A DNA stretch of 64,000 bases from Succinimonas sp. (GTDB lineage: Bacteria > Pseudomonadota > Gammaproteobacteria > Enterobacterales > Succinivibrionaceae). Position 1 is the first letter of the stretch. Every line of letters begins with the position of its first letter. Under the pieces are notes generated by a model. The model was not told the DNA's origin and ran no database searches. It was given only the letters and a program-made list of their open reading frames with translations. Both the position numbers and the translations under genes were made by a program. Positions 10,822-30,173 of the stretch are shown piece after piece. Where the stretch lies: assembly GCF_045124755.1 (NCBI RefSeq), contig NZ_JBGVMK010000082.1; one strand, written 5' to 3'.

Positions 10822-11385
10822 ATGACAACTGCCCTTATCATCCTTGCTGACGGAGCCGAAGAGCTGGAAACAATTTCCGTATCAGATATTCTCTCCCGCG
10901 GCGGAGTTCAGGTAACCCTGGCCGCCCTTTCAAACAAAAACAGCACTGAAATTACCTGCGCCCACGGTACTGTAATAAAGGCTCCCTGCCTGCTCTCTTC
11001 TGTAAAAGATCAGGAATTCGATGCTGTAGTGGTTCCCGGCGGCTATCAGGGATCCCTCAACTGTCAGAAATCTGCACTCGTAAAAGAAATTCTTCAAAAA
11101 CAGCAAAGTTCCGGAAAACTAATTGCCGCAATCTGCGCTGCTCCCGGACTGGTACTGGCCCATCAGGGTATTATCACTGATGAAGAAGCTACCGGATACC
11201 CCGGAACTACCGAGGGCATCAAAAATCTTAACATTACTGCCGGCGTGGTAACTGACAAGGAACATCATCTGATTACCGCTCAGGGGCCGGCTTATGCCGC
11301 CGACTTCGGTTCTGCGGTGCTTACGGTACTAAAGAACGCTGATGTTACAAAGAAAGTCAGGGAAGGAATGTTATTTAACAATTAA
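10822..11385 (+). CDS. yajL: DJ-1/PfpI family protein (YajL/ThiJ-like deglycase)
   Basis: ALIILADGAEELE...VVVPGG...AAICAAP (nucleophile-elbow Cys). Length is 187 aa. Synteny with panE. Confidence 0.8.
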   Translation: MTTALIILADGAEELETISVSDILSRGGVQVTLAALSNKNSTEITCAHGTVIKAPCLLSSVKDQEFDAVVVPGGYQGSLNCQKSALVKEILQKQQSSGKLIAAICAAPGLVLAHQGIITDEEATGYPGTTEGIKNLNITAGVVTDKEHHLITAQGPAYAADFGSAVLTVLKNADVTKKVREGMLFNN

Positions 11386-11924: not shown

Positions 11925-12326
11925 ATGTACAAAATTGTAAATTTTACTGAGCATGGAGACGAGAGAGGTCAACTAATTGCTCTTGAGTCCCAAATAGATT
12001 TTCCTTTTTCTGTCAAACGTGTTTACTACGTATATGGTTCATCTCCTGATGTTGTTCGCGGGAGACATGCTCATCATAACCTTTCTCAGATGCTGGTATG
12101 TGTCAGCGGCAGTTGCGACTTTACCTTGGATGACGGTTTTGAGAGAGCTGTGATTCATATGGATTCACCTACAAAAGGCCTTTTGATTACAGGGGTGGTA
12201 TGGCGGGAGTTCACCAACTTTTCCAAGGATTGTGTGGTAGTTGTAATGGCTTCTGAGCATTATGATTCTTCTGATTATATCTTTGACTATGAAGAATTTT
12301 TACAGATAGCGAGATCTCAAAAATGA
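11925..12326 (+). CDS. dTDP-4-dehydro-6-deoxyglucose 3,4-ketoisomerase (FdtA/QdtA, WxcM-like cupin)
   Basis: F.EHGDERG.L.ALE....PF..KRVYY.YG......RG.HAH..L.Q.LVC.SGSC is typical of FdtA/QdtA. The start is set at MYKIVNF (11925). It overlaps the following aminotransferase by 4 nt. Confidence 0.8.
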
Positions 12327-13408
12327 TTCCATTCCTTGACTTGAAGAAAGTTAATAATCGTTTTGAACCAGAGTTTAAATCAAGACTGGAGAATGTTTTG
12401 TCATCTGGTCGGTACCTGTATGGCGATTTTTATAATTCTTTTTGCAAGAATTTTGCCAGCTACTGCGGGGTTCGGTATGCGCTGGGAGTTGCCAATGGTC
12501 TTGATGCATTAAGGATTATTATCAAGGCCTACGGTTTTGGGTCCGGGGATGAGATCATTGTTCCCGCTAATACCTTTATTGCCACAGTTCTAGCGGTTTC
12601 AGACAACGGATGCAAGCCGGTGTTTGTGGAACCGGATATCAATACCTACCTGATTGATCCAGATCTTATTGAAGAGAAGATTACTCCCAGAACCAAAGCA
12701 ATAATGGCAGTTCATCTTTACGGTCAGGCAGTGGCTGTAGAAAAAATCCGCCAAATTGCGAACCATCATAATCTTAAGATTATTGAGGATGCCGCGCAGG
12801 CTCATGGTGCTATCTATGGAGGGGGCCGTACCGGTTCTCTGGGAGATGCTGCAGGTTTTTCCTTTTACCCGGGGAAGAATCTTGGAGCCTTAGGCGATGG
12901 CGGTGCCATAACCACCAACGATCCGGAGCTTTTTGAAAAATGCCGGGCGATTGCCAATTATGGTTCGGATTACAAATATCATCACATCTATAAGGGGGTT
13001 AATTCAAGACTTGACGAAATTCAGGCTGCTTTTCTGGATATCAAGCTTCCTCTGCTTGACGATGATAATCAGCGACGCCGCGAGATCTCGGCCTGCTACC
13101 GGCAAAATATTAAAAACAGCAAGATTATTCTTCCGGAGACTGCTGAGGAGCTTTCTCACGTCTGGCATCTCTTTGTCATCAGAACTGCTGATCGCGAGAG
13201 CCTTGTTAAGTATTTGGCCGATAAGGGAATTCAGGTTTTGATTCACTATCCGGTACCGCCCCACAAGCAGCTGGCATATTCTGAATATGCTGATTATTCG
13301 TTACCCATTACAGAAAAGATTCACCGAGAGGTTTTAAGTCTACCCATGAGTCCGGTTTTGGACGAAGTAAAAATCGCCTCAGTGATCGATGCATTGAACA
13401 GTTACTAA
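12323..13408 (+). CDS. DegT/DnrJ/EryC1/StrS family PLP aminotransferase (FdtB/QdtB-like dTDP-3-keto-6-deoxyhexose 3-aminotransferase)
   Basis: The family fold is recognisable: IPFLDLK...[14 protein letters not shown]...ED.AQAHGA...GD...[16 protein letters not shown]... Confidence 0.85.
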
Positions 13409-13515: not shown

Positions 13516-14118
13516 TTATCGATATTCCCAGTATTCAATAATATTTTCAAAAATACATTTTTTCATTTCATAGTCAGCCGGACTTAACAAATAGTATTTA
13601 TAATCCACTCCACCAATTTGAGTATTTTTGATATACCGAAAGCCTAGTTTCTTAGTCAAATTGTTCATAATTTTGTTATCAACTCTATTCTCATTAATAA
13701 CGTTTCCTATTCTTAAAACATTAAATGAAAAATCCAAACTAAGAAGTTCAACTTCAATGGCATATGGTCCGATCGAGGAATATTCTTCATCGAGCATTAA
13801 GCTACCTTGTATACAAGTATCAGTCTGTTCATCAATATTATAAATTCGAATAGTCCCTATAAAACAATTATCTTTAGTATATACACACCAATAAATATCA
13901 TCAAACTTCTTGAGATAGCTTTCATACCATTTTGCCTGACTGTAAGGAGTAATAATAAATGTTTGATTTAAAAAGTAACGATTCTTCTCCTTGTTTCGAA
14001 TTTCTATTACATGATCCGAATGTGCCATAGTAAAAGGAACCAAATCGACTAACTTACCTTCTATTGTTATTTTTCTGTACTTTTGAACAATATTGGCTAT
14101 TTTATTATTAAATTTCAT
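13516..14118 (-). CDS. GNAT family N-acyltransferase
   Basis: RimJ/L-like GNAT layout (LVPFT..H...I..IRN.......FL...). It is the last gene of the FkbH-ACP-MaoC-SDR operon. The start at MKFNNK (14118) overlaps the SDR stop by 11 nt. Confidence 0.65.
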   Translation of the reverse strand: MKFNNKIANIVQKYRKITIEGKLVDLVPFTMAHSDHVIEIRNKEKNRYFLNQTFIITPYSQAKWYESYLKKFDDIYWCVYTKDNCFIGTIRIYNIDEQTDTCIQGSLMLDEEYSSIGPYAIEVELLSLDFSFNVLRIGNVINENRVDNKIMNNLTKKLGFRYIKNTQIGGVDYKYYLLSPADYEMKKCIFENIIEYWEYR

Positions 14119-14842
14119 TACTAGTTCCTGAAAATAATACATTCTCACCATTCATATTATCACTGTGCACAGAAAGTAATTTCCACAACGACAACGCAAC
14201 ATCTTGCGGTGCAAGGATATTATCTAAAGCTCCACAAAAATCTAACATTCTCCTGTCTATCTCACTAAGAAGTTTAGTATCAATCATTGATGGAGATAAA
14301 GCATTAATATTAACATTTTTACCTGCATACTCTACAACTAAAGATTTCATTAATCCCAACAGCATATACTTAGACATGGTATATTTTGTGGTAAACTTAG
14401 CTGGTGGGTTAATGGTATTCTCTGAAAGCATAAAAACAATTTTTGCTCTTTGATCCATCTTGGAAATACGAGGTAGAAAGAATTGTAACAATTGAAATAT
14501 AGACCTCACTTGGATATTAACATCAGAAATACAATCTTCCCAATCAAGTTCTTTGAATTTTACATAGAGCAACTTAGGAGCTGGTAAATGTACAATCGAC
14601 AATGGTAATCTCTGTGAATCATTGATTTTTAAGCAAAGCTTCTTTACGTCATTAAGATCAGAGAAATTTGCTGCAATGGGAATGATTGAATTTCCATTTC
14701 TTTCTGCTATACTTCTTATTAACTTACTATTAGAACAGTAATGTGCCCAAATAGTTGAAGTTTCTTCATTATTATTGATTTCCTTTATGAGTTCTATGCC
14801 GACATCAGAGGAAGCTCCCAATATTAAGTAATTTCTACTCAT
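14108..14842 (-). CDS. SDR family oxidoreductase (ketoreductase-like)
   Basis: Gly-rich LILGASSDVG dinucleotide motif and catalytic YxxxK (YTMSK). The start at MSRNYL (14842) overlaps the MaoC stop. Confidence 0.8.
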   Translation of the reverse strand: MSRNYLILGASSDVGIELIKEINNNEETSTIWAHYCSNSKLIRSIAERNGNSIIPIAANFSDLNDVKKLCLKINDSQRLPLSIVHLPAPKLLYVKFKELDWEDCISDVNIQVRSIFQLLQFFLPRISKMDQRAKIVFMLSENTINPPAKFTTKYTMSKYMLLGLMKSLVVEYAGKNVNINALSPSMIDTKLLSEIDRRMLDFCGALDNILAPQDVALSLWKLLSVHSDNMNGENVLFSGTSNEI

Positions 14843-15251
14843 AGAAGCCCACCAATATATTTGCTTTCGACACAACTTTTCCTAATTGATTTTGTATGTT
14901 TGCACTTATAGTTGCTTGTATGAATCTATCATCTTTTTCCTTTACTCGTCCCGTGACAATTAATATATCTCCAATGTAAACAGGTCTTTGGAAAAATATT
15001 TCTATAGATTTCATTATACAGTACTGTCCAGGTAAATACATCCCTACCAATCTCGAATAGAACGATGATGTTAGCAAACCATATACTAACCTACCATTAT
15101 GCCCGTGATTTCGCGCATAGTCTTCTTTCATGTGCAATGGATTTTCATCACCTGATATATCATGAAACATACTCATCATAGTTTCTGTTATTTCAATAGA
15201 GAAGGAAGCGTTTGTACCGATATCGCAGTTATTAAAGTGATAATCATTCAC
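14835..15251 (-). CDS. MaoC-like (R)-specific hydratase/dehydratase, hot-dog fold
   Basis: F..ISGD.NPLH.....A........R.VYG.L is a MaoC dehydratase motif. Length is 138 aa. Confidence 0.8.
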   Translation of the reverse strand: MNDYHFNNCDIGTNASFSIEITETMMSMFHDISGDENPLHMKEDYARNHGHNGRLVYGLLTSSFYSRLVGMYLPGQYCIMKSIEIFFQRPVYIGDILIVTGRVKEKDDRFIQATISANIQNQLGKVVSKANILVGFYE

Positions 15252-15485
15252 TTATATTTTATCCTTTATAATATCAATGAACTCACCAACATTAGCAGCT
15301 TTTTTAATTTCAGCAGTCGTAAACTTAATTCCAAACTTCTTTTCAATCTCTACAATTAATTGCATATGTGTCAAAGAATCCCAATCGTCAATGTCGTCAG
15401 CTGTTGTATCTGAAGTGATAATCAAATCTTGATTATCAAAAATTTTCCTAAAAATCATTTGAAGTTGATTAATAATTTCCTTCAT
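15252..15485 (-). CDS. Acyl carrier protein
   Basis: 77 aa with the DSL phosphopantetheine attachment motif (IDDWDSLTHMQLIVEIE). Confidence 0.85.
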   Translation of the reverse strand: MKEIINQLQMIFRKIFDNQDLIITSDTTADDIDDWDSLTHMQLIVEIEKKFGIKFTTAEIKKAANVGEFIDIIKDKI

Positions 15486-17286
15486 GTATTATCTCCCTAA
15501 AATAATAGTTTTGTTTATATTCAGCAATACGTTCTAGCGGTAGAATATATTGTTTACAATCCAAAGCATCCGTTATTAAGTCAAAGTTCAAAAATTCATA
15601 AAGATTTCTAACCATTTCATTTTTATTTGTTTGACGATATTCACCTAACACCGCAGAACATCCATGATTTCTGGCTATGTCTACAATTCTCTCTATCGTA
15701 TAATTTTCAACACGCTTTTTTAATACTCTGCAACTCATGACCCAATTTTCTATAAAACAAGTATCACCCGTAAAGTGAAGAATTATACATCCTATTATAC
15801 CATATTTACAAAAACGATCTTCCAATTTTACGGAAAGTAGTGCATATCGTTGATCATCTAGAAGAGCAATAATCTCAGCTTCTGAATACCTCTTTGTTCT
15901 AAGATTAAACTGATTTGACTTGTTTGTTAACTGAACAAATCTCTCAATATCTGTTTCAGTTAGTTGCTTGCACTCAATAACCATTTTCAGGTTAATTAGA
16001 TAATCATCATAATCAACACAGGATGCCATCAAAGCATTTCTCTCTTTGTTATTAGCGTATGTTTCTGTTCTCCCAAGATCTTCATTTGTTAACTGTGTCC
16101 ATTCAAAAGCATGTGCTTGATCTAACGCACGCGTATATAAGGCTGGATCTTCAGGAACATCGATAACTCTGACTTCAGGTAGAAATTCCCTTATCAATTC
16201 TCTCTCTGTTGGGTTATCATCAAAGAAAACCATGCTATCTGTTCCGATATTCAATTCATTTGATATCTTCTTAATATTAGTAGCTTTATCGTTCCAATTC
16301 GCAAAAAAAGAGGAGATATCCGATAGTTTCAAAATCATATTCTCATTTTTTTCAAATGGTTCCTTTGCTATATCCTCATCATTTTTACTACAGATACAGA
16401 GAATCACTCCTCTTTTTTTCAACTCAAGAACATACCTCTGAAATGCAAGAAATGCTTCCCCCTCCGCATCATTCGGATCTAAGAGAATACCATCATACCC
16501 TAAGTCTCCAACAACCCCTCCCCAAAGTGTATTATCTAAGTCTAGCACCAAGCACTTCTTGGGTTTGCCCGAGAATGCCTCAAATTGACGGGCTATTAAA
16601 TCACAATAAAAACCTATGTATTGCAGATTAAAACTCGACTTATTCAAGAAATACGAACATTCATCTACAAAGTCTCGTTTACCGATATATTCTGATAGTG
16701 CATCAACATCCAAAACAAAAACAAACGGAGGATGCCTCTTCGTAAGTGTATAATTCAGTTGCCTATAGAAGGATCTCTTTGAAAAAATATAATTTGAAGA
16801 TAAGTTACCTAACGCTTCAAAAATTGGTGACACGAAATTTGCAATTAATAACTGAGTTTGTGGAATATTTTTGTGGATTATATCAAACATCCGTGCATAT
16901 TGGTCATATGCATTATCGACAGCACTTTGAACTTCACTCTCTTCTGAAAGCATTTCCGGACAAAAAACTTCTACATCTCTATAATCTGGAAGTATAACTA
17001 TATATTCAGGAGAAAAAGTATAGAGTTTTGATTTTTCATCAAATACATCCATAAATATCCCATTATATTCTCCTTCATAAATATCTGCATAGATATCATA
17101 GCGTGTTAATAGAGCACGAAATACAGAAGTAACAAGCTGGATACTTGCACTCCCAACAATTGCTATCTTAATAATGGTTGCTTCATTGTCTTGTATTTTT
17201 TTCCATTTTCTTCCAATATTCAATAACGCAGAAAAATCATCTATTTTTATTTCATGTACTGCCTTTTTATATTCGCGAAAGAGCAT
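15469..17286 (-). CDS. FkbH-like protein (HAD-IIIC phosphatase domain plus C-terminal GNAT-like fold)
   Basis: HAD motif I in the context CLVLDLDNTLWGGVVGD, then ...ICSKN.E..A...F is typical of TIGR01686/FkbH-like proteins. The stop overlaps the ACP start by 17 nt. Confidence 0.8.
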   Translation of the reverse strand: MLFREYKKAVHEIKIDDFSALLNIGRKWKKIQDNEATIIKIAIVGSASIQLVTSVFRALLTRYDIYADIYEGEYNGIFMDVFDEKSKLYTFSPEYIVILPDYRDVEVFCPEMLSEESEVQSAVDNAYDQYARMFDIIHKNIPQTQLLIANFVSPIFEALGNLSSNYIFSKRSFYRQLNYTLTKRHPPFVFVLDVDALSEYIGKRDFVDECSYFLNKSSFNLQYIGFYCDLIARQFEAFSGKPKKCLVLDLDNTLWGGVVGDLGYDGILLDPNDAEGEAFLAFQRYVLELKKRGVILCICSKNDEDIAKEPFEKNENMILKLSDISSFFANWNDKATNIKKISNELNIGTDSMVFFDDNPTERELIREFLPEVRVIDVPEDPALYTRALDQAHAFEWTQLTNEDLGRTETYANNKERNALMASCVDYDDYLINLKMVIECKQLTETDIERFVQLTNKSNQFNLRTKRYSEAEIIALLDDQRYALLSVKLEDRFCKYGIIGCIILHFTGDTCFIENWVMSCRVLKKRVENYTIERIVDIARNHGCSAVLGEYRQTNKNEMVRNLYEFLNFDLITDALDCKQYILPLERIAEYKQNYYFREIIHEGNY

Positions 17287-17370
17287 TATTTTAACCTATA
17301 TTTCATTTTTTGATTAGAGATCGAAAATTTATAGCAATTTATATGACTAGCTCTAATAACAAATTATAAC

Positions 17371-19100
17371 GTAACTTCCCTGCGATTTTCAAGCATACCT
17401 GATTGAATCCGGTATCCTTTTATGTTAGGTATAAAGTCGGCACTTTAGCCTTCTTAAAATTCTATGGCACTGCCTGCTCAAAATAGCATTTCTTCAGACA
17501 GCGATTCAGCTTTCATTTCGTCCTGTGAACACCATTCATACCTGAAATTCAAGGTAATCTTCCAGGTCAATTCCATGGACTTTGCAGTTTCATGAAATGA
17601 TGAGAACACAGCAGTGACTTCGCTCCCTCAACAGAGCCAAATCCGCTGGGCATTGAATGTCTCAGCACGGCAAAGTCACGGATAGCCCTCTCGGCGGCCG
17701 AGTTATCAAGAGGAGTAGCACCGTCCTCCAGGATTCTGGTGAATTTTTCCCACTGATTGTGGGAGTATTTCACTGCTTTGATGAATTTGGCCGTATATAT
17801 CACCCTTGGGGGACTCGCTTTCTGAAATGATTTTGAAATGTTTTTCTGTCAGATGCCTTATTTCTTCAAAACACCGCCTGAAATCATCGCTTTGTCGCAG
17901 TTTCGTTCGTTCCTCAATGGTGCTGCACTCACCGTCCCTGCGAAATACTTCACTGATAAGCTCAAACCTGAAACCAGGTATTCTTCGCTCTCTTTATCTA
18001 TGTGGTTCTGGTGAGCGTCGTAGATATCGAAGAAATATCGTCGGAGATGAACCATGCAGCCAACCAGCTTCGCCTTATACGAGCCGTCCCTGTTCTTCAG
18101 CCATTCAACGTCATACCATCCGTCAGTGGAGATTACGATTGCATCGCCGTCATCCGATAGCCCGCCCGATAGCCACTCGCCATCGCCAAACTGATCCTTC
18201 ATGATCTTGAACGGAACAGACTGAGATCTGGTGTTTGTATAGCTGTAAAAACAGCCTGTTGTTTCAGATACAAACACCAGCATGTACTGGCGGCTGCCTT
18301 TTTCAGCCTGACAGCTGATGAAGGTCTCATCAAGGTGGAGAACCTTGCTCTTCAGCACGCAGGCCTTCAGATATTCGTATGCCGGGAGGATCCATTCTGC
18401 CGAGAAAGCTGAATACCTTGCCATCTGCTGCCTTGAGACATCAAATCCCAGGCTTTTGCTGATTTCCTGAGCTATTCTGTTCATCGGAATGCGATTCCGC
18501 ATTCTTTCAGCGATTGTCTGAGCCGCAAGGGAAAAGCCAAATACAGTCTTGGGAAGAAAATCCTTTTCCGGATTCATTCCGGCTATCACGGCCGGCGCTT
18601 CATTATTTTGAGCCGGCATTACTTTCCTCATAGACAGGAACGTATGAGAAAACCCTGAAGCTTGTTCTTACCTGTTTAACTTTCTCGGAATCTTTTTTCC
18701 ATCCCTTAATACGTATTTCCTGACGTCCTTTTCAATGATCTGAGCGATTTCTTTTGAGGCATCGTCTCTGTTAGATGCCGCAAGGGCGTTGCCATTGAAA
18801 TCGAAGAACTTTTCTTTCTCGCCATCGCAGCAGTCGGTCTTTGCTGAACAGCTCTGTCTGTTTCTTCGCGGGCTGCTGTTTCTGCTTTTCTTCGACATTA
18901 TGAGAAGCGGTTTCATTCTTATCCTTCTTCTGTTCCTGCCGTCTTGAAACAGGGAGTCTTCATTAATGCGTCAAGATAAACCTCTTTGGAAGACAGGAGC
19001 GTCTTCAGGGTCTTAACGATTTCTTTGCTTTTTGCAAGCTCGGATTCTTTCTTCTTAAGTGCTCCCACGATTTGCTGATCTTGTTCTTCATTCTTCAACT
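17371..19100 (-). mobile_element. IS66-family insertion sequence remnant (boundaries uncertain)
   Basis: Contains the disrupted TnpC-like transposase below. A possible terminal repeat GTAACTTCCCTGCG starts at 17371 (IS66 ends usually begin GTAA). GC looks host-like, unlike the AT-rich flanks. Confidence 0.6.
17567..18916 (-). pseudogene. IS66-family transposase (TnpC-like), inactivated
   Basis: Three ORFs (18668..18916, 17858..18631, 17567..17803) are in the same frame. They are separated by in-frame stops (TAA 18668-70, TAA 17858-60, TGA 17849-51). Family blocks present: VLHLDETFISC, ISTDGW, LVGCMVHLRRYF, NQWEKFTRILEDG..PLDNSAAERAIR. The C-terminal ETAK..GIDLEDYLEF is only readable after frameshifts. 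The leucine-zipper N-terminus (LKKKESELAKSKEIVKTLKTL) lies upstream in another frame, to about 19100. Confidence 0.8.
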
Positions 19101-19360
19101 ATTTTGGTTTGTTTTCTGGTCTGATTTAAATATCTAATATCAGCTCTTTAGCAGTTGCAGCTGATGTTAAATTGTTCGATTAGTGCGTAAAAGGGGCAAA
19201 TTGACATAGCCAGTATTGTGCTGATGAACGGAAGAACTCTATTTGTAATCTTCACTTCAATTGCAATTTCCTTCAACGCATCCTGATTTATGGTGCGTAT
19301 GGTACGAATTCACCAGCACTCTTGTCAAGAATTACCGAAGCCCTAAGATAACGGTTTAAG

Positions 19361-19400
19361 ACCTAATAACTCCTTTGCGGGGCCTAATAACTCCTTTGCC
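19361..19400. repeat. Direct tandem repeat, 2 x about 21 bp (core CCTAATAACTCCTTTGC)
   Basis: The identical 17-mer occurs at 19362-19378 and 19383-19399. Confidence 0.9.
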
Positions 19401-19633
19401 CTAAGTCATCTCCAATTGCTGCTACAATCTTATCAAGTTTAATGACGATTTATTGGAAGGCAGAACGATGAACACTCTTTGAACTTTGGACGGTTAATCT
19501 CCTCAAAATCTCCACAAAATCCGGGGTCAAAAAATCCGGGCAGCAAGTGTCAGATGTGGAGGTGTAATGAACGAACAATCAAATTCACGGCAGCACCTGA
19601 CACAGTCATAGAGGTTGTAATTGAGTGCATTGC

Positions 19634-19680
19634 CGTTATCTTCCTCTGACCATTATCTTCCCGGACATTATCTTCCCGGA
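19634..19680. repeat. Tandem repeat, 15 bp x 2 perfect (CATTATCTTCCCGGA) plus one degenerate copy
   Basis: Perfect copies at 19651-19665 and 19666-19680. The degenerate copy CGTTATCTTCCTCTGA lies at 19634-19649. Confidence 0.9.
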
Positions 19681-19768
19681 ACCGTACAAAGACGGGGCAG
19701 ATATGAGATGCATGCACTGCTCCCTGATATTCTGCTGGAAAGATAGTGACCACGCTTTGAGGTAATTT

Positions 19769-19808
19769 GTGACTCCCCTTCCCGATGAATAGTGATCCCC
19801 TTCCCTGA
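19769..19808. repeat. Direct repeat pair GTGA(C/T)(T)CCCCTTCCC(G/T)GA with 23-bp period
   Basis: GTGACTCCCCTTCCCGA at 19769-19785 and GTGATCCCCTTCCCTGA at 19792-19808. Confidence 0.8.
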
Positions 19809-20448
19809 GAGGATACACCACATTAAATCTATGCAGGCAGGAACGGAGTTAGAGTTCTGAAGAATAATAATTAAGAAGGGAAGACGCCTGGCGGCGCTTC
19901 CTGTTTAATAATTAAAGGGGCATCGGCCCTTTACCCCTAAAACTGCCTTGTATTGCAAAAATTGAAGCGAATGACAATCTCTTAGGCTGGCTTTGCTGGC
20001 AATCTGGTACTTTATGGTACGGTACCACCTATGGTTTACTTAATTCTGAGTACTGTACTTGGTGATCAGGAATTTGAAGAATAAACTGTCATGATTGTGT
20101 GAAAAGGGGTGTCACTAAATTTCCGCGGAAGTAGTTGTCACATAGGGGCATAATTTCCATTCCTGCTTCCTAATTTCAAGTATTAAGCTACAAGTGTTAT
20201 ATCAAAAAGCACTTTTCACCAACAAAACGAATATTATAAAACAGAAAAATCCCTGACCATGTCCACCCACTTGCCATGTTCACCACTTGCCAAGATGATA
20301 AGGTTAATTAGTTTTAATTACTCATTGTATATTTGATATGAAATTAGTATAATGCTTGAAATGTCACAAGTTTGCAGTAATCAACCAAATTTCAGAAGGC
20401 CATTAACGACAACGATTTCTTATTTCAGTATCCGAGGCTCATGTACAG

Positions 20449-21621
20449 ATGACAAAGACTAATGAAAATTTAAAGATGTTTTCATCACTCAACGATGATG
20501 CTACTACCGTATACAATTATGAATCGGACACAAAATATAAAGACAACACTATGGTAAATACATATAGTAACACGATGAATTTCGAGAAGGTTGTTGCTAG
20601 TTCTGAAAGAACTAATACCAATATTGTTGTACCAACTGAGAATACTACTAACAAAAAAGCGGAACCATTAGTATCTGTTCTTATTCCATCATACAATCAT
20701 GCAAAATATATTACAGAGACAGTTAATTCTATCATAGATCAAACATACAAGAATATTGAACTACTGATACTAGATGACGGATCTAGTGATGATACAGCCA
20801 TTAAGATTAGTGCTTTAAGACTGAAGTGCGAAGGAAGATTTGCAAGATTCCTGTTCCAAAAAAAAATAAACGAGGGAGTATGTCTAACATTAAACAAACT
20901 GATAAGTGAATCCAGGGGAGAGTATATTTTCTTAATTGCCTCAGATGATATAGCAAAACCTACGCTCATTGAAAAAGAAGTTAATTTTTTGAAAGATCCT
21001 GTCAATACCGCATATTCATTAGTAGTATGTGACAACACAATTATCGATCAGAACAGCGTGGAATGTTTCTGGGGAAAAGGGAGGCGCTGTGTTTACAACA
21101 GGCAAGAGGCAAAGTTCCTAACATTCGGAAACTATCTTCAAATTTTACGAGGTATTGATTTCAAGGGGGATGATTTCGGAAAATATGAGCATCTTTACCT
21201 CAGAGGAAATCATATACCTAATGGATATTTAATAAGGAAGAGTATTCTCAAGTTGACTGGTTTATATAATCCGAAAGCTCCACTTGAAGACTATTATTTA
21301 ATGTTACAGCTCTCAAAATATTGTCTTTTTAAATATATTGATGAACCATTATTCTGTTACAGATGGCATGATTCAAATTCAATAAAGAATTCATATAGAA
21401 TTACCAAAATGACAGTAGCAACAGAAAAGATTGAAGATGACATATTAGCAAAGATAGACATTAATGACCCAAACTTTCTCGAGAATACGGTATTATTTAA
21501 ACATAAATATGATCAGAGTTTAGCATATAAAATTCATCGTGTTTTACGAAAACTAAGGGTCGTTTTTAAATATTGGTATTATGTAATAACGCAGAAAACA
21601 TTCTTCACTCAGACTGATTAA
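20449..21621 (+). CDS. Glycosyltransferase family 2 (start uncertain; about 70 aa Asn/Thr-rich N-terminal extension if the first ATG is used)
   Basis: VSVLIPSYNHAKYITETVNSIIDQTYKNIELLILDDGSSDDT is the canonical GT2 N-terminal motif. It is the only island gene on this side transcribed on the + strand. Confidence 0.8.
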   Translation: MTKTNENLKMFSSLNDDATTVYNYESDTKYKDNTMVNTYSNTMNFEKVVASSERTNTNIVVPTENTTNKKAEPLVSVLIPSYNHAKYITETVNSIIDQTYKNIELLILDDGSSDDTAIKISALRLKCEGRFARFLFQKKINEGVCLTLNKLISESRGEYIFLIASDDIAKPTLIEKEVNFLKDPVNTAYSLVVCDNTIIDQNSVECFWGKGRRCVYNRQEAKFLTFGNYLQILRGIDFKGDDFGKYEHLYLRGNHIPNGYLIRKSILKLTGLYNPKAPLEDYYLMLQLSKYCLFKYIDEPLFCYRWHDSNSIKNSYRITKMTVATEKIEDDILAKIDINDPNFLENTVLFKHKYDQSLAYKIHRVLRKLRVVFKYWYYVITQKTFFTQTD

Positions 21622-21773
21622 TAATCAAAAAAAAGCGCAAAAGCTGATTTTTATCTGACTTTGATATAGTAAATACTTTGAAACACCTTTATTGTTTAGC
21701 AGAAAATATTTTAGACTTTTACACTTTTATCATAAATATTATTTTTCAACAGCTTCTTAACATAAATAGTTTG

Positions 21774-23201
21774 TTAATTTCTATGTTTAATCATATTAAC
21801 TAACTTTGTCAAATCTTCCTTATATATTAATGACATCCCTGCTGAAAAGCATAAGGCTGCAAGAGTCCCAATAATTGATAGTTTGCTGAACCATATTCTC
21901 CAAAAAATCATATATGCTACAATCAATAGAGATGCCATAATAAACCTCTTTGAAACAACCATAAGCTTCATCCTGCATAAAACAATCACACAAATGATGT
22001 CTGATACGACATACCCCATAAGTGTGGCAACCGATGCCCCTTCTATACCGAGAATAGGGATTAACAAATAGTTGATCAAAACGTTCAATACAACACCTGA
22101 TGACAAAATTATAAAATTTGGCCATGTCTTTTTAATTACCAGGAACTGATTCGCTGCGACTTGGAATAGCATCAGCAAAAGAGGCGCCAAGAACAAATAT
22201 GGAGCTACAATATACCCACTTAAATAGTCTTGTCTGAATAACAATTCGAAGATCTCATAGCTCCAAGCACAGATGAATGCAGTGGCAACAAATGAGATAA
22301 TTCCAAGATACTCAAATATTCTCGAATTCAACTCTACTTGATGATCTTCCTTCATCGTTGAGAAAGCAAAGTACTGCCAGCCTCCAGCAAATCCAATATA
22401 AATCAATTGACTCACATGTCCAAGATTCGAACCAACGGAGTAGATTCCTGTGGCACCAATACCAGTCATGTTCGTAATCATAACCTTATCACAGGAATTA
22501 AATACCCAGTAGATCAAAAAATTCGGTAGTAAAGGTATTGCAATTACTAGAAGCTGTTTCAAAAGTTTTTTATCAAATAATCTGGGGTTGAACCACTTCC
22601 GATTCATAACAGCAAAAGCAATTTCCATTGTAATTCCAGAAATAACTGCTGCCAAAGGTAATGCGATCACATAGTAACCGGATAATAACATTGGGATTGA
22701 TATTAAATATGAAATTAGCGGGCTGATAGTGTTTGTAACCAAAAAGACTTTTCTCTTGTTCTGCATTCTGGTTGGAGCGGATATTATGCTGTTTGTTGCC
22801 CCAACCAATGTGGCCATAGCAGAGAGATAAACCACGTAAGAATACTGCTTGTCACTGAAAAAATACTGGGCAATCAAATCTTTGAATGCCAGCATAATGA
22901 AAAATACTACGATGGAAGTAATGAAAGTAAATACCAAAGCCGTTGAACAGACTTTCCGTTGATAATCTTCATCATTGTTCTCCTCGAAGAACATACGATA
23001 CATTGCATCGTACATTCCCATAATCGCGATTGCACTACCAAATTGCACAACAGTGTTCGAAAGATCGCTGATTCCATAATAATCGGTCGCTGGCATTATC
23101 ATAATCACTATCGGGATCATGACCAAAGGAATCAATTTGCTGATAACACCGCCTATACCATACACTAAAAAATTTTCTATAAACAATTTCAGTTTGTTCA
23201 A
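21774..23201 (-). CDS. wzx: Oligosaccharide flippase (Wzx, MOP/polysaccharide biosynthesis protein family)
   Basis: 475 aa, about 12-14 predicted TM segments, in a polysaccharide-locus context. Confidence 0.7.
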   Translation of the reverse strand: MNKLKLFIENFLVYGIGGVISKLIPLVMIPIVIMIMPATDYYGISDLSNTVVQFGSAIAIMGMYDAMYRMFFEENNDEDYQRKVCSTALVFTFITSIVVFFIMLAFKDLIAQYFFSDKQYSYVVYLSAMATLVGATNSIISAPTRMQNKRKVFLVTNTISPLISYLISIPMLLSGYYVIALPLAAVISGITMEIAFAVMNRKWFNPRLFDKKLLKQLLVIAIPLLPNFLIYWVFNSCDKVMITNMTGIGATGIYSVGSNLGHVSQLIYIGFAGGWQYFAFSTMKEDHQVELNSRIFEYLGIISFVATAFICAWSYEIFELLFRQDYLSGYIVAPYLFLAPLLLMLFQVAANQFLVIKKTWPNFIILSSGVVLNVLINYLLIPILGIEGASVATLMGYVVSDIICVIVLCRMKLMVVSKRFIMASLLIVAYMIFWRIWFSKLSIIGTLAALCFSAGMSLIYKEDLTKLVNMIKHRN

Positions 23202-23367
23202 AATAAACTCACAATCTAACTCTCTAACTTACACTTTGCACTTGACTACGAAGAATATATGAATGCAGTGAAAAAGAGCACAAAATCCAATTAAAGGGAA
23301 AATCGAATACGATCGCTTCACCGGAAATCAAAAAAAGTCATTTTTTGAGGTTTTAAGATAAAGAGTA

Positions 23368-24324
23368 TTATTTATTACCCATTCTTTGTTTCTCAAAATA
23401 TCTATTCCAATAATTTTTATTAGAAGTCAGATACATTATAATTCTTTTTGGAATTCTGTTGTAATACAATCCAATCTTATTACCAACAAATTTACCAACA
23501 CAAATATATAAAAATATAAAACAATGCAATATCAAAAAATGCTTTATCAAACCAAAACATACGTATTTAACTAATTCAATACCCTCGGTATTAACTCTTA
23601 TATTTGAATAGTATTCCTTATACATTTTTAAAAAAACCCCGATGTCAAAATTTCTTCTAAGTTCTTGCATAAAAGAATAACTATGTGAGTGATAAACTGT
23701 TGAATGAGCATCATATATAATTTTATAGTCATTCATAATAGCTTTTGTTGCAATTAACATGTCTTCACTAATTAATGTTAATTGTTCAAAACCACCTAAT
23801 AAGTAATAAATATTTCTTCTATAAGCAGAACAGACATCTGACATAAAAAAACATTTTATTCCCAGATTTGCAATATCTTTTTTGGTTTTTATTTTACTTA
23901 ATTCAGGGTAATTAAATTCACGAATTAATTTTTCATAAGGTGTTGCATTTTTTCTCGGAATTTGCCGTCCGTAAACCATTGCAACTTTATCATCTTTAAA
24001 ATTTGATACAATATTTTGTAGATAATCAATATCAAAAATCTCAACATCTTGAGAAAAAAATACAATTATATCACCAATTGATTTAGTTACTGCTAGATGT
24101 CTAGTTCCTCCGTGATCAAAATCAGTTCTTCTAATATTAATAATTTTAACAAACGAAAATTCTCTTGCAATTTGTATTGTATTATCAATAGACTCGGAAT
24201 CAATCACTAGAACTTCTACGGGTTTTAAAGTTTGCTTTTCGATATTTTGTAAATTTCTTCTTAAATATGGTTCGGCATTCAATGTTAAAAACACAACTGA
24301 TACTTCAAAACAGTTATTTTTCAT
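23368..24324 (-). CDS. Glycosyltransferase family 2
   Basis: VSVVFLTLNAEPYL...Q......VLVIDSESIDNT and a downstream DxD-like FSQDV. The start at MKNNCF (24324) overlaps the wzy stop. Confidence 0.75.
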   Translation of the reverse strand: MKNNCFEVSVVFLTLNAEPYLRRNLQNIEKQTLKPVEVLVIDSESIDNTIQIAREFSFVKIINIRRTDFDHGGTRHLAVTKSIGDIIVFFSQDVEIFDIDYLQNIVSNFKDDKVAMVYGRQIPRKNATPYEKLIREFNYPELSKIKTKKDIANLGIKCFFMSDVCSAYRRNIYYLLGGFEQLTLISEDMLIATKAIMNDYKIIYDAHSTVYHSHSYSFMQELRRNFDIGVFLKMYKEYYSNIRVNTEGIELVKYVCFGLIKHFLILHCFIFLYICVGKFVGNKIGLYYNRIPKRIIMYLTSNKNYWNRYFEKQRMGNK

Positions 24325-25675
24325 ATATATAAGCAATCCCTAATAAAATCCAAAAATAGAAATATGTTTCAAAGATGTTACAATTAAAAAAGGCTTGCAC
24401 CATGTAGCAAAGCAACACAAATAAAAAGATAATCTTACTTCTTTGATAAAATAAGTCGTTGCTTTTTATAATTGACATGACAGATCTTACAATACATGTA
24501 CTAAAAAATGTGATATAAACTAGAAAAGAGATTACTCCCTGAGTAGCAAAGATATGCAGATATTCGTTATGTGCAAAATTCACAATAATATGAGCCTTGT
24601 CTAATTCTGGATTCGTAAAAAAAACATCATGAAAATTTCCTATTCCAGTTCCAGTTAGAAAATTGACATTCATTATGTACTCGATAGTATAGCGCCAAAC
24701 TTGACTTCTAAAAGAACCTAATTGATCAAAATTTTGATTATCTGAGGCTATAACAGAAAAATCCTGTAAAAACTCACCAATGCTTGGTATTAATAAATGT
24801 GGCAGAAAAACATAAACAACTATTGTAGAACAGGCAATAATCGAAATAGCTACAGGTATTTTATAATAGCTAATTTCAAAACATGTCTTATGAATAGTGA
24901 GTTTCTTACGATTTATAGCATAACAAGTAATACCAAAAATAACCAACAAAGATACACTCGTGCCAATTCCTAAAATACCAAGTCTTGTACTTGAACAAAT
25001 GGCACAGAAGCTTGATAAAAATATTAAAAAAAGCCACTTTACGTTAAAAACAGAACACTTACGCAACAGATAAGAAATACATGATATTGATACAAATATA
25101 GTTGCAATAGCAGCATAAAAATTACAATGGGATGTTAAACCATAAATACATCTTAGTTGTTCATGCATCTCTGGCATATTGTAACTATTTTCTGAAATTC
25201 TTAGCCCTAGAACTTGAAATATCCCAATAAAATCATGAAGGCATCCGACTATGATAAAAGAGATAATTAGATTCTTTGCATGTTTTTTTAAATCCAATTT
25301 AGTAGCTGAATATAATAAAAAAAAGTACGCATAGTAATGAAATAGCTCTTCAGTATGTCCAATTGATATAAAAAAAGGAGTCAACAGCTCAGGAGTTGAA
25401 AAAGAAACAGAAATACCAGCCAACAAAACAAGTATAGTATATACAAGCGATATAGATGAAAATTTTTTATTTAGACAGATATCAGATAGGAACAACAATA
25501 ATCCTACCAATCCCAACGCAGTTAAATATGCCCTTTCAAATACATATGGCATATTATAAAATAATTCACCAAACAATTCACTTATCGGAACAAATAGCAT
25601 CGAAAGGACAATTATTCCAAAATAGAAATCTGAATCGTTTAAAACTCTTTTTAGAAAAATGCAGTATTCTTCCAT
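24314..25675 (-). CDS. wzy: O-antigen polymerase/ligase family membrane protein (Wzy-like)
   Basis: Polytopic membrane protein with a Wzy_C-like loop (..R..W......I....F.G.G.GNF...........AHNEYLHIFATQG). Confidence 0.7.
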   Translation of the reverse strand: MEEYCIFLKRVLNDSDFYFGIIVLSMLFVPISELFGELFYNMPYVFERAYLTALGLVGLLLFLSDICLNKKFSSISLVYTILVLLAGISVSFSTPELLTPFFISIGHTEELFHYYAYFFLLYSATKLDLKKHAKNLIISFIIVGCLHDFIGIFQVLGLRISENSYNMPEMHEQLRCIYGLTSHCNFYAAIATIFVSISCISYLLRKCSVFNVKWLFLIFLSSFCAICSSTRLGILGIGTSVSLLVIFGITCYAINRKKLTIHKTCFEISYYKIPVAISIIACSTIVVYVFLPHLLIPSIGEFLQDFSVIASDNQNFDQLGSFRSQVWRYTIEYIMNVNFLTGTGIGNFHDVFFTNPELDKAHIIVNFAHNEYLHIFATQGVISFLVYITFFSTCIVRSVMSIIKSNDLFYQRSKIIFLFVLLCYMVQAFFNCNIFETYFYFWILLGIAYIYEK

Positions 25676-25968
25676 AATGATAAAATTCTCAAGCAGTACT
25701 TATATTATTAAATAGAAAAACATTTAATTTGATATGAATTACTTTTGAATAAAGTAAAATTATAAAACCATTTACCGAATTTATTTTATGATAAAATTCT
25801 ATTCGTAACAAAGCAAATAGTCAAACTTCTAGTAACAACACCTAATTAAAAGAAAAAAATACAATCTTAGATAATTTTTTAATTAAACTTTTAACCATAA
25901 CTTCCTACATCATAAGTATCGTACAGCAATATTGTTCTATGGGTTGTAATAGCAAAATCACTCATTTA

Positions 25969-27444
25969 TCAAAATGAGTTTTTATGAGAAATAACAACAT
26001 TCACTGTTTTTAGAATTATTTTAACATCTTTTAATATTGACCATTCTCTAATGTATTTTCTATCAAGAGCAACAACATCTTCAAAATTTGTAATCGAACT
26101 TCTACCACTAACTTGCCACAATCCGGTAATCCCAGGTTTAATAAACAATCTTGACTTATGGTAAAGTCCATATTTTTCCCACTCGTCAATAGTTGGAGGT
26201 CGTGTACCAACTATTGACATATCTCCTTTTAAAACATTAAAAAATTGAGGAAATTCATCAAGACTATATTTCCTAATTAGCGAGCCAACTCCATATTTCT
26301 TTTTTCCATCCGGAAGAATTTTGTTACCTATAACCCTAGGATCAAATTCCATTTTGAACATCATATCATCTTTCACTATATTTTGGCTTCGCAGTTTTTC
26401 CTTTTGTTCCTCTGCATTCAGATACATTGTACGGAATTTATATAAATTAAAAATTCTTCCATGCATTCCTATTCTTTTTTGAGTAAAAAATATTGGACCA
26501 GGAGAAGATAAATAAATTATCGGTGCCAAGATAAAGAACAAAAATAACGTAATTGTGCATCCGGCGATAGCTCCGGCAATGTCAAGCAATCTTTTACAAA
26601 TTAATTGTTCATAGCTCATGTAATTTAACGTTGTTGTAATTGTCATATATGAGCCTATTTTATTAGTTATCTGCTTAAGATTACTTTGATAGAAAGTATT
26701 TGTTAATGCAAAATGCACAGTACTTCCGTTGTATGTCAATTCCTCTAAAATTTTTGATAAATTTTCAGATATAACATTAGAAACAACCAAAACCTCATCA
26801 ATCCAACACCGATTAGCAAATTCTAAATAGTTATCCGGAGTAATTTTTTCATAATCGATCTCATCATCACATTCAAATGAGGCATCTTTATCTTTTTCAA
26901 TTTTATTATCAAGAATCAAAAAACCAATTACCTTATAATTACCAAGCATCCCTGACATATATTCTTGTTTTAAGACACTGTAATAGTTAAGAGTCGTAAT
27001 GATCAACAATGATGCCCTACTACTTTTTTTTGTATATTTGATAAATAATTTGATATAAAACATCATTATGAAATAATTAAACAAAAAATAAAATAATGGA
27101 AAATATATTGCAAATATAATTCTTGAGTAATCAACTCCTTGTTTTGTTCCAAAAAAATAAAATATTGTCATTGTATCCACAATAACCACTTGTTTTATAT
27201 TTGCAACGATTTTTCTTCCTGAATTCTCCTTTGCGTATCCTTTATATATTTGAAAAACAATAGCTGATAGTATCGAACCAAGAGTAATGATAATCGATAT
27301 ATTTAAATATCTAGTATTAGTATATACTAAAGAATGATCCACGTGAATATAATATGAAATCATTAATGCCAAATGCAATGAAAACACATTCAACACAATA
27401 AAATCAAAATTCTTAATCCATCCTATTGGCTTTTTATGATACAT
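25969..27444 (-). CDS. Polyprenyl-phosphate hexose-1-phosphate transferase (WbaP-like bacterial sugar transferase)
   Basis: C-terminal PGT domain KR..D......I..L....P........L.......PIFF.Q.R.G..G..F...KFRTM....E.....LDE.PQFFNVLKGDMS.VG.RP. N-terminal TM bundle. Confidence 0.85.
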   Translation of the reverse strand: MYHKKPIGWIKNFDFIVLNVFSLHLALMISYYIHVDHSLVYTNTRYLNISIIITLGSILSAIVFQIYKGYAKENSGRKIVANIKQVVIVDTMTIFYFFGTKQGVDYSRIIFAIYFPLFYFLFNYFIMMFYIKLFIKYTKKSSRASLLIITTLNYYSVLKQEYMSGMLGNYKVIGFLILDNKIEKDKDASFECDDEIDYEKITPDNYLEFANRCWIDEVLVVSNVISENLSKILEELTYNGSTVHFALTNTFYQSNLKQITNKIGSYMTITTTLNYMSYEQLICKRLLDIAGAIAGCTITLFLFFILAPIIYLSSPGPIFFTQKRIGMHGRIFNLYKFRTMYLNAEEQKEKLRSQNIVKDDMMFKMEFDPRVIGNKILPDGKKKYGVGSLIRKYSLDEFPQFFNVLKGDMSIVGTRPPTIDEWEKYGLYHKSRLFIKPGITGLWQVSGRSSITNFEDVVALDRKYIREWSILKDVKIILKTVNVVISHKNSF

Positions 27445-29192: not shown

Positions 29193-29308
29193 AACATTCC
29201 TGCTTGTGCGCTTGCGTTCTGTTCTGTAATAAAAAACCGGGAAGCCCCGGTTTTCATATGTCACGACTCAATACATAACCACTCGGTCAATTAAACTTGC
29301 CTTCCGGA

Positions 29309-30013: not shown

Positions 30014-30173
30014 AAAACTTCAAACTCCTTTAAGCAGCATCACCCTGCGATTATATCATGCACCGGTCAATTACTCTCCAAAAAATGGAATCCGGCAGTT
30101 TAGCCCGCTTTACGCTATAATGAACGCAAATTTTGATCTGTATCAGATAACGCTAACCAAGCCAATTCATTTC

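Follow-up and report, generated by a model that had tools for sequence, protein, structure and literature searches.

A five-gene FkbH-ACP-MaoC-SDR-GNAT operon beside fdtA and fdtB in a Succinimonas polysaccharide locus: a predicted carrier-protein-dependent route to an N-acylated 3-amino-3,6-dideoxyhexose

Organization of the five-gene operon

We analyzed a stretch of 64,000 nucleotides from the rumen bacterium Succinimonas sp. (contig NZ_JBGVMK010000082.1), referred to in the following as the window. It carries a compact block of five intact open reading frames (ORFs) on the minus strand, from position 17286 down to 13516, which encode an FkbH-like protein, a stand-alone acyl carrier protein (ACP), a MaoC-type dehydratase, a short-chain dehydrogenase/reductase (SDR) and an acyltransferase of the GNAT type (Table 1). 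The 605-residue FkbH-like protein is 100% identical to an NCBI entry designated 'HAD-IIIC family phosphatase [Succinimonas sp.]'. On balance, we favour the interpretation that this one operon builds an unusual N-acyl group and delivers it to a 3-amino-3,6-dideoxyhexose in a surface polysaccharide made by a Wzx/Wzy system. What the computations show directly is how the genes are ordered, that they are intact, to which families their products belong and which catalytic residues these retain, that the synteny recurs elsewhere and that MaoC and SDR are present or absent as a module.

Two of the start codons required attention. The ORF for the SDR extends upstream to a TTG codon at 14875; its homologues begin at the ATG of Met-12, which places the start at 14842. 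The ORF for the GNAT extends to 14151, and here, too, Met-12 is favoured as the start, both by the homologues and by a 99%-identical database protein of 200 residues. With these starts, the four junctions within the block (a 17-nt overlap, 0 nt, an 8-nt overlap and an 11-nt overlap) agree exactly with the initial annotation of this DNA, which had described five tightly packed minus-strand genes. The same annotation had the block converge on an FdtA/QdtA-like and an FdtB/QdtB-like gene, and this is borne out by the profile matches of the two products. The fdtA and fdtB genes overlap by 4 nt, and the pair is convergent with the GNAT gene across a gap of 107 bp, in which no intrinsic terminator was found.

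Table 1 Positions of the operon genes, the adjacent sugar genes and other features of the window
Feature	Position	Strand	Details
FkbH-like protein	15469-17286	-	605 aa; FkbH_N domain, HAD-IIIC phosphatase domain and C-terminal acyl-transfer domain with Cys519
ACP	15252-15485	-	77 aa, stand-alone; overlaps FkbH stop by 17 nt
MaoC, hydratase-2 type single-hotdog dehydratase	14835-15251	-	138 aa; GTG start abuts ACP stop
SDR, classical, ketoacyl-thioester-reductase type	14108-14842	-	overlaps MaoC by 8 nt
GNAT, FdhC-like	13516-14118	-	overlaps SDR by 11 nt
fdtA	11925-12326	+	FdtA/QdtA-type dTDP-4-keto-6-deoxyglucose 3,4-ketoisomerase; PF05523, 159 bits
fdtB	12323-13408	+	FdtB/QdtB-type pyridoxal-phosphate-dependent 3-aminotransferase; PF01041 (DegT family), 368 bits
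Candidate operon promoter, sigma-70-like	17363-17392	-	TTGAAA-18-TATAAT, 11/12; best match of the region, 77 nt upstream of FkbH start; consensus match only
IS66-family transposase, broken	17567-18916	-	PF03050, split over two ORFs; between FkbH operon and glycosyltransferase genes
Glycosyltransferase family 2 (GT2)	20449-21621	+	PF00535
Wzx	21774-23201	-	PF13440/PF01943
GT2	23368-24336	-	PF00535
Wzy_C protein	24314-25675	-	PF04932
Phosphoglycosyl transferase (Bac_transf)	25969-27444	-	PF02397
DJ-1/YajL-like gene	10822-11385		island boundary
thiI	27708-29264		island boundary
234-aa ORF	29309-30013	-	very long C-terminal tail rich in His/Cys/Asp/Glu

The FkbH-like protein and its carrier protein

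Members of all five expected families were recovered in profile searches (TIGR01686, PF00550, PF01575, PF00106/PF13561 and, for the GNAT, PF13302), as the initial annotation had predicted. The FkbH-like protein matches the FkbH domain profile TIGR01686 with 297.3 bits, about twice the cut-off of 146.65, over profile positions 3-320 of 323. Further matches are to TIGR01681 (HAD-IIIC) and PF21211 (FkbH_N). Its sole relative of solved structure is 3SLR, the uncharacterised protein BF1531 from Bacteroides fragilis (E 1.7e-62), which spans the N-terminal and HAD domains.

An alignment of eight sequences included two proteins from polyketide synthase (PKS) contexts found in a plasmid collection, the FkbH-type protein of a hybrid nonribosomal peptide synthetase (NRPS)/PKS system from Bacillus thuringiensis and the FkbH of a tetronate-type FabH-FkbH-ACP arrangement from Streptomyces. 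From its position, we take the former to be encoded by the zwittermicin ZmaN gene. Identity between the window protein and the PKS-context proteins is 27-28%. In the HAD part, D249-x-D251-x-T253, S300-K301-N302, K334 and D356-D357 are invariant, and the C-terminal triplet S518-C519-R520 is likewise invariant in all eight sequences. A conserved C-terminal cysteine carries the acyl intermediate in OzmB-type FkbH enzymes. The aspartates and the cysteine that had been singled out for inspection, D249, D251 and C519, are therefore all present in the window protein and are shared with its PKS-context counterparts. The motif-I stretch KCLVLDLDNTLW is the very sequence encoded by a degenerate PCR primer for FkbH genes (PMC3679948). 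By analogy with the PKS enzymes, the FkbH-like protein is predicted to load a glyceryl group onto the ACP, after dephosphorylation of a phosphoglyceryl unit that presumably stems from 1,3-bisphosphoglycerate.

The ACP matches PF00550 with 29 bits and stays below the cut-offs of all AcpP equivalogs. Its phosphopantetheine attachment site, W-D-S-L, is invariant in ten homologues from related loci, in all of which the ACP gene is paired with that for FkbH.

The MaoC and SDR proteins

The MaoC protein (PF01575, 55 bits) contains the motif F-HD-I-S-G-D-E-N-P-L-H-MKEDY-A, of which D, N, P and H are kept in 11 homologues. The best matches in the PDB are the human 3-hydroxyacyl-thioester dehydratase HTD2 (3IR3, 5e-19) and, after it, PhaJ-type (R)-hydratases. 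We predict that the protein dehydrates glyceryl-ACP to enol-pyruvoyl- or pyruvoyl-ACP.

The SDR is recognized by PF00106 (61 bits) and PF13561 (60 bits). Matches to the profiles for FabG, acetoacetyl-CoA reductase and YmfI are weak and all below the cut-offs, and the nearest relatives of solved structure are acetoacetyl-CoA reductase and FabG (about 1e-9). The glycine-rich motif G-A-S-S-x-x-G, the catalytic serine (L-S) and the YxxxK motif Y-T-M-S-K are kept in nine homologues. The YxxxK spacing fits ketoreductases rather than FabI-type enoyl reductases. The predicted reaction is the reduction of pyruvoyl-ACP to lactyl-ACP.

The GNAT and the acceptor sugar

Apart from its match to PF13302, the GNAT shows a weak match to TIGR03585 (PseH). 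Used as a single sequence against the PDB it found hardly any relatives, the best being FdhC (6e-5). A profile built from 34 family members retrieved FdhC (5KTA) with an E value of 9e-14, followed by a spermidine acetyltransferase at 8e-7. The AlphaFold (AF2) model of the protein has a mean confidence score (pLDDT) of 94, and a Foldseek search with this model again returned 5KTA, described as a 'nucleotide-linked sugar GNAT', as the top match (TM 0.76/0.85). Many other GNATs scored nearly as high, and PseH, an N-acetyltransferase for a nucleotide-linked amino sugar, was also among the matches. WecD, which had initially been put forward as the precedent for a GNAT of this kind, is thus replaced by FdhC. 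FdhC and QdhC are (R)-3-hydroxybutanoyl transferases for dTDP-Fuc3N and dTDP-Qui3N, respectively, and act after FdtA/FdtB or QdtA/QdtB in Escherichia coli O103, Salmonella O55, Acinetobacter and Hafnia alvei (PMC4869667, PMC3726653). The family of the window GNAT is small and distinct, with 52 clusters at 50% identity reaching E<=1e-30 in a search of 1.84 billion representatives. We doubt that it belongs closely to the FdhC family, because the FkbH and ACP context argues for an ACP-bound donor. The GNAT is predicted to move an ACP-bound C3 acyl group to a dTDP-3-amino-3,6-dideoxyhexose.

The identity of this hexose can be narrowed to two sugars. FdtA of the window matches FdtA 2PA7 (5e-36, 127 bits), WlaRB (117 bits), QdtA 4ZU7 (1e-31, 112 bits) and WlaRA (102 bits) in the PDB, scores too close to one another for similarity to tell a galacto (Fuc3N) from a gluco (Qui3N) product. 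For FdtB, the matches are 7N63 (1.5e-148), 5U1Z (3e-145) and QdtB 3FRK (4e-125).

The usual acetyltransferases of such pathways, FdtC and QdtC, have a left-handed beta-helix (LbH, hexapeptide) fold. In line with the initial annotation, no LbH acyltransferase was detected in the 64 kb by tblastn with three LbH queries (best E=0.13) and a crude repeat scan, an approach of limited sensitivity. Nor did the Pfam and LbH searches reveal any other acyltransferase in the island around the operon, which leaves the GNAT as the only candidate there, again as proposed at the outset. The absence of a ketosynthase from the window was noted at that stage as well and holds also for the related loci with the same five genes.

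Recurrence and modularity of the cassette

Related loci were collected by a genome scan, which gave seven close relatives, by a GNAT-anchored metagenome scan and by contig look-ups, and were compared with the window by tblastn with the window proteins and by Pfam searches. After removal of duplicates, about 19 distinct loci contain a GNAT of the same family, and FkbH and ACP genes adjoin it in every one of them that has sequence on that side. The complete block in the order FkbH-ACP-MaoC-SDR-GNAT is found in the window and in seven further loci (L002, L012, L024, L025, L027, L029 and L033). A permuted form, FkbH-MaoC-SDR-(VOC)-ACP-GNAT, occurs in L031, L032 and L035. A shorter variant consists of FkbH-ACP-GNAT accompanied by a Glyoxalase_4 (VOC) protein and a methyltransferase, although these extras are not always present (L001, L008, L018, L030, L034 and L036). 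The five-gene arrangement is thus not a chance association, being shared by many independent contigs.

Two loci illustrate the modular character of the cassette particularly clearly. These two metagenome contigs represent one chromosomal site, with flanking genes in common that include a thiI-like gene; L026 (7561-10594) carries FkbH-ACP-GNAT there and L029 (6773-10582) FkbH-ACP-MaoC-SDR-GNAT, as if the MaoC-SDR module had been gained or lost naturally. We conclude that MaoC and SDR form an optional module on a constant FkbH-ACP-GNAT core. Neither a ketosynthase nor a thiolase lies beside the five-gene block in the window or in the other loci that possess it.

Genes for FdtA- and/or FdtB-like proteins are present in ten of the approximately 19 independent loci (the window, L008, L012, L018, L024, L025, L030, L032, L034 and L036). 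The neighbourhood survey suggested for this DNA has therefore turned up the full block or the FkbH-ACP-GNAT core beside such genes repeatedly. In L032 the genes follow each other without gaps in the order FdtA-FkbH-MaoC-SDR-ACP-GNAT-FdtB-Wzx, in L034 the order is FdtA-DegT-methyltransferase-FkbH-ACP-VOC-GNAT, and in L018 the FdtA and FkbH genes overlap. The Wzx and FdtB genes of L032 (6991-8926) encode proteins with 60% and 55% identity to their window counterparts, whereas FkbH is only 35% identical; on these sequence comparisons, the genes for sugar and flippase appear to have a different history from those of the acyl cassette.

A VOC (Glyoxalase_4) protein is often encoded beside the cassette (L008, L018, L030, L034, L035 and L036). 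In L036 the GNAT and the VOC protein are fused (protein P0206, 9001-9954). The VOC protein is usually joined by a methyltransferase, which is of the FkbM type (Methyltransf_21) in L008 and L018 and belongs to Methyltransf_23 in L030 and L034. Methylmalonyl-CoA epimerase provides the analogy for a VOC protein acting as a thioester C2-epimerase. By this analogy, VOC protein and methyltransferase could point to O-methylglyceroyl products.

In two loci of Bacillota, L030 (5566-16086) and L012 (3319-8026), FdtA/FdtB genes and the cassette lie beside YfhO and GT2 or beside GtrA and GT2. Three-component systems of this YfhO/GtrA kind act outside the membrane, where they add decorations to teichoic acids or polysaccharides, and the acylated sugar may therefore be a side branch there and not part of a backbone.

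More distant FkbH-ACP pairs (33-50% identity) have acyltransferases of the WcbI or MBOAT type as neighbours and are found in nonulosonic-acid loci and in capsule loci of rhizobia. On pSymB of Sinorhizobium meliloti (L022, 4687-9722) such a pair adjoins an MBOAT protein near the rkp capsule export genes, and in Niveispirillum (L023, 7797-12277) it adjoins a WcbI-family acyltransferase. These two pairs may serve the O-acylation of capsules with a C3 unit. L021 (2192-17337) is a nonulosonic-acid locus of the NeuB/CTP_transf_3/MptE-like, flagellin type in which the neighbours of an FkbH-like gene encode a BcrAD_BadFG activator, a pair of HGD-D subunits of the 2-hydroxyacyl-CoA dehydratase type, an ACP and a MaoC protein, a hint of more exotic tailoring of the C3 unit.

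Proposed pathway

In the pathway that we propose, FdtA and FdtB would supply dTDP-Fuc3N or dTDP-Qui3N from dTDP-4-keto-6-deoxyglucose. The FkbH-like protein would capture a glycolysis-derived 3-phosphoglyceryl unit on Cys519, with 1,3-bisphosphoglycerate as the donor by analogy with the PKS FkbH enzymes. Its HAD domain would remove the phosphate, and the glyceryl group would pass to the dedicated ACP. On the resulting 2,3-dihydroxypropanoyl-ACP, the MaoC protein would abstract H-2 and eliminate the 3-hydroxyl group, leading to the enol-pyruvoyl and then the pyruvoyl thioester, and the SDR, a putative ketoreductase, would reduce the 2-keto group to yield lactyl-ACP. Finally, the FdhC-like GNAT would place the lactyl group on the 3-amino group of the nucleotide sugar. 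We infer which unit is loaded, in which order and by what chemistry MaoC and SDR act, that the GNAT uses acyl-ACP directly, what the acceptor is, and all of the stereochemistry. Direct acyl transfer from the ACP by the GNAT is the least certain point of this scheme. Formation of pyruvoyl- or lactoyl-ACP from 1,3-bisphosphoglycerate has been invoked for lankacidin (PMC6162330), and N-lactyl Fuc3N occurs in nature, in S. litorea (PMC9912281).

The constant FkbH-ACP-GNAT core, the optional nature of MaoC-SDR and the lack of a ketosynthase in any of the loci make a C3 acyl group the parsimonious product, and a lactyl group where MaoC and SDR are present. The initial annotation had left the choice between glyceryl- and lactyl-ACP; the C3 route as such is supported by the computational evidence, and the product can be narrowed to lactyl for the window. 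Because MaoC-SDR is an optional module on the core, lactyl is most likely the better prediction here than glyceroyl.

Several observations speak against the proposed pathway. The GNAT shares only about 20% of its residues with FdhC and forms a separate subfamily. The donor of FdhC is an acyl-CoA, namely 3-hydroxybutanoyl-CoA, and no sequence feature of the GNAT separates an ACP from a CoA donor. The nearest characterised relatives of MaoC and SDR use beta-hydroxy and beta-keto thioesters, and the step proposed for the SDR is an alpha-keto reduction. No rmlA-like gene is present in the 64 kb, such that the supply of the dTDP-sugar precursor is not seen. The search for LbH enzymes covers the same 64 kb, and FdtC or QdtC may be encoded elsewhere in the genome. 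A broken IS66 element lies directly upstream of the operon. In addition, an FdtA/FdtB-like gene is absent up to a distance of about 9 kb in five well-flanked loci (L001, L002, L026, L029 and L035); the cassette therefore has no exclusive tie to 3-amino-3,6-dideoxyhexoses.

In principle, pathway and acceptor could be as described while the GNAT transfers, instead of lactyl, a glyceroyl or a further C3 acyl group, for example pyruvoyl. MaoC and SDR would then bring about not a net 3-deoxygenation but, for instance, an epimerisation at C2, either by removing water and adding it back or by an oxidation followed by a reduction. The GNAT family can evidently handle the unprocessed product of FkbH, since the core is found without MaoC-SDR in L001, L008, L018, L026, L034 and L036; L003 has a MaoC gene that is apparently frameshifted and no SDR gene; and N-glyceroyl amino sugars exist, namely on Qui4N (PMC9912281) and on the pseudaminic acid of Tannerella forsythia (PMC5378307). 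On the other hand, the hydratase-2 dehydratase motif of MaoC and the reductase triad of the SDR are both intact in the window, and most loci have the two genes as a pair. Moreover, the GNATs cluster largely by cassette type in a simple neighbour-joining tree, suggesting different acyl specificities. With a dehydratase and a reductase acting on glyceryl-ACP, lactyl is the simplest outcome, and we consider a non-lactyl C3 product in the window unlikely.

A second possibility concerns the acceptor. The acyl group could be destined for another amino sugar, a polysaccharide hydroxyl group or a non-glycan amine, the product of FdtA and FdtB being acetylated by an enzyme encoded elsewhere. The five loci without nearby FdtA/FdtB genes would fit, as would the distant FkbH-ACP pairs that are partnered with WcbI- and MBOAT-type O-acyltransferases or reside in nonulosonic-acid loci, and the sequence analyzed covers 64 kb of the genome. 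Yet the closest relative of the GNAT is FdhC, an N-acyltransferase for dTDP-Fuc3N, FdtA/FdtB-like genes flank or interleave with the cassette in ten loci from different organisms and bracket some of the operons, and the island holds no second acyltransferase. A different acceptor thus appears still less probable than a different C3 group.

That FkbH loads a unit other than glycerate, or that a C4 acyl group (3-hydroxybutanoyl or crotonyl) is made with the help of housekeeping enzymes while MaoC and SDR act in their canonical beta-hydroxy and beta-keto roles, is very improbable: the best characterised relatives of the two proteins are indeed acetoacetyl-CoA reductase/FabG and (R)-3-hydroxyacyl dehydratases, known FdhC transfers 3-hydroxybutanoyl, and the searchable literature records no test of which substrates the large non-PKS FkbH-like clade accepts, but the HAD phosphatase site is intact, which implies that the acyl donor is phosphorylated, FkbH would have no role in a C4 route and is nevertheless the most constant partner of the GNAT, and in E. 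coli and Acinetobacter FdhC alone, without such a cassette, suffices for Fuc3N(3-hydroxybutanoyl). A reading of MaoC and SDR as 3-hydroxybutanoyl-forming, fatty-acid-synthase-like enzymes was accordingly rejected as the main explanation, given that no ketosynthase or thiolase lies beside the block in any locus and FkbH would be left without a role.

The lactyl pathway proposed for the window may be one case of a more general principle. More tentatively, and with somewhat less than even confidence, we suggest that a widespread, modular FkbH-ACP toolkit diverts a glycolytic C3 unit to a carrier protein and tailors it in different ways: no further enzymes would give glyceroyl, VOC epimerase and methyltransferase O-methylglyceroyl, and MaoC and SDR lactyl groups, while a new FdhC-like GNAT subfamily would use the acyl-ACP directly to N-acylate nucleotide-linked amino sugars.

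The surrounding polysaccharide island

The operon and the fdtAB pair are part of a low-GC island that extends from 11.9 to 27.5 kb of the window, with 28-40% GC against about 48% in the flanks, and is bounded by a DJ-1/YajL-like gene and thiI. From its gene content, with Wzx, a Wzy_C protein, glycosyltransferases and a phosphoglycosyl transferase, the island can be classified as a Wzx/Wzy-type polysaccharide locus. The GC content of these remaining polysaccharide genes (20449-27444), whose products would make use of the sugar, is 28-33%. The closest relatives of the FkbH and GNAT genes of the island come from Lachnospiraceae, other Bacillota, and gut and rumen metagenomes. The low GC content and the relatives in Bacillota point to horizontal acquisition of the island by this gammaproteobacterium.

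Upstream of the operon, a sigma-70-like candidate promoter was noted (Table 1); promoter-like sites in the region are not enriched over shuffled sequences. Beyond the broken IS66 element, about 1.5 kb (18916-20449) contain no convincing ORF. Broken element and ORF-poor stretch suggest that rearrangement, or assembly through insertion, has shaped the island. Next to thiI, outside the island, lies an ORF of 234 codons whose product we take from its sequence to be a SlyD-like (FKBP-type) protein; a hydrophobic ORF on the opposite strand (29297-30103) is spurious.

Comparison with known systems

N-lactyl and N-glyceroyl groups on amino sugars such as Fuc3N, Rha4N, Qui4N and pseudaminic acid are rare antigenic decorations (PMC9912281). 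Amide-linked lactyl has been termed 'rare' but is reported on Fuc3N, Rha4N and pseudaminic acid, and N-glyceroyl is known on Qui4N and on the pseudaminic acid of T. forsythia (PMC9912281, PMC7281560). Named producers are Simiduia litorea KMM 9504 for N-lactyl-Fuc3N, Psychrobacter marincola KMM 277 for N-lactyl pseudaminic acid and T. forsythia ATCC 43037 for N-glyceroyl pseudaminic acid. The predicted sugar is thus not new chemistry; the gap lies in the genes. For N-glyceroyl pseudaminic acid of T. forsythia, the genetic basis has been called 'a major challenge' (PMC5378307), and we found no assignment of genes for N-lactyl-Fuc3N in the searchable literature. If our proposal is correct, the modular toolkit represents the missing genetic basis of these rare substituents on bacterial glycans and provides a gene-level marker for them in genomes of gut and rumen bacteria. 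It would extend FkbH chemistry from polyketides to glycans and offer a compact five-enzyme system for the glycoengineering of N-acyl sugars. We know of no example of a GNAT-catalysed, ACP-dependent N-acylation of an NDP-sugar.

Among glycan loci, that for flagellar glycosylation in Campylobacter jejuni invites comparison. Here, cj1302 is annotated as an FkbH-domain gene (PMC7099621), and a di-O-methylglyceric acid derivative of pseudaminic acid is present on the flagellin (PMC3958885). The likeness, an FkbH-domain gene within a glycan-modification locus, is drawn from annotation; the acceptor differs in being a nonulosonic acid, and the searchable papers report no function for cj1302. Apart from this annotation, we found no paper in the searchable literature that links FkbH-type enzymes to the synthesis of O-antigens or polysaccharides; publications dealing with C. 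jejuni Cj1295, with the core genes of flagellar modification or with pseudaminic acid glycosylation in Clostridium do not mention genes for FkbH, ACP or glyceroyl formation. The novelty originally claimed for a non-PKS use of this chemistry in glycan decoration is somewhat reduced by the cj1302 annotation (PMC7099621) and by the known occurrence of N-lactyl-Fuc3N (PMC9912281), while the arrangement itself stands as undescribed.

The FdtC and QdtC acetyltransferases catalyse the same step, N-acylation of dTDP-Fuc3N or dTDP-Qui3N, but differ in their LbH fold and in acetyl-CoA as the donor. The FdhC/QdhC pathway (rmlA, rmlB, fdtA/qdtA, fdtB/qdtB, fdhC/qdhC) is closer, as FdtA and FdtB are followed by an N-acyltransferase of the GNAT fold instead of an LbH enzyme. 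FdhC transfers a hydroxy-acyl group to a 3-amino group, and among solved structures it is the one nearest to the window GNAT in both profile and fold comparisons. In that pathway, however, general metabolism provides the acyl group as a CoA thioester, and the fdhC/qdhC clusters contain no genes for donor supply. In contrast, the window GNAT and its relatives always occur with a dedicated FkbH-ACP pair, with or without MaoC-SDR, and the predicted acyl group is C3 and not C4.

The second group of relatives comprises the FkbH cassettes of PKS systems for methoxymalonyl-ACP, hydroxymalonyl-ACP and tetronates. They share with the window an FkbH domain above the cut-off, identical HAD motifs and C-terminal cysteine, and an adjacent stand-alone ACP. 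Unlike these cassettes, the window has neither a PKS, NRPS or FabH-like partner nor FkbK/FkbI-type dehydrogenases, and the output would go to a GNAT in a polysaccharide locus. The proposed logic is the same as that of lactyl- and pyruvoyl-ACP loading modules in trans-acyltransferase PKSs, with FkbH loading, dehydration to pyruvoyl and ketoreduction to lactyl on a carrier; loading modules combining FkbH with dehydratase (DH) and ketoreductase (KR) domains are those of FR901464 and bryostatin. There, PKS-type DH and KR domains reside in megasynthases, whereas the window encodes a discrete MaoC protein and a discrete SDR, has no PKS genes and would yield an amide on a nucleotide sugar. The cassette may thus work like a PKS FkbH-DH-KR loading module without being a member of that group. 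Two known kinds of system, the FdtA/FdtB/FdhC-type sugar pathway and FkbH/ACP-based C3 loading, are combined here in an arrangement so far undescribed.

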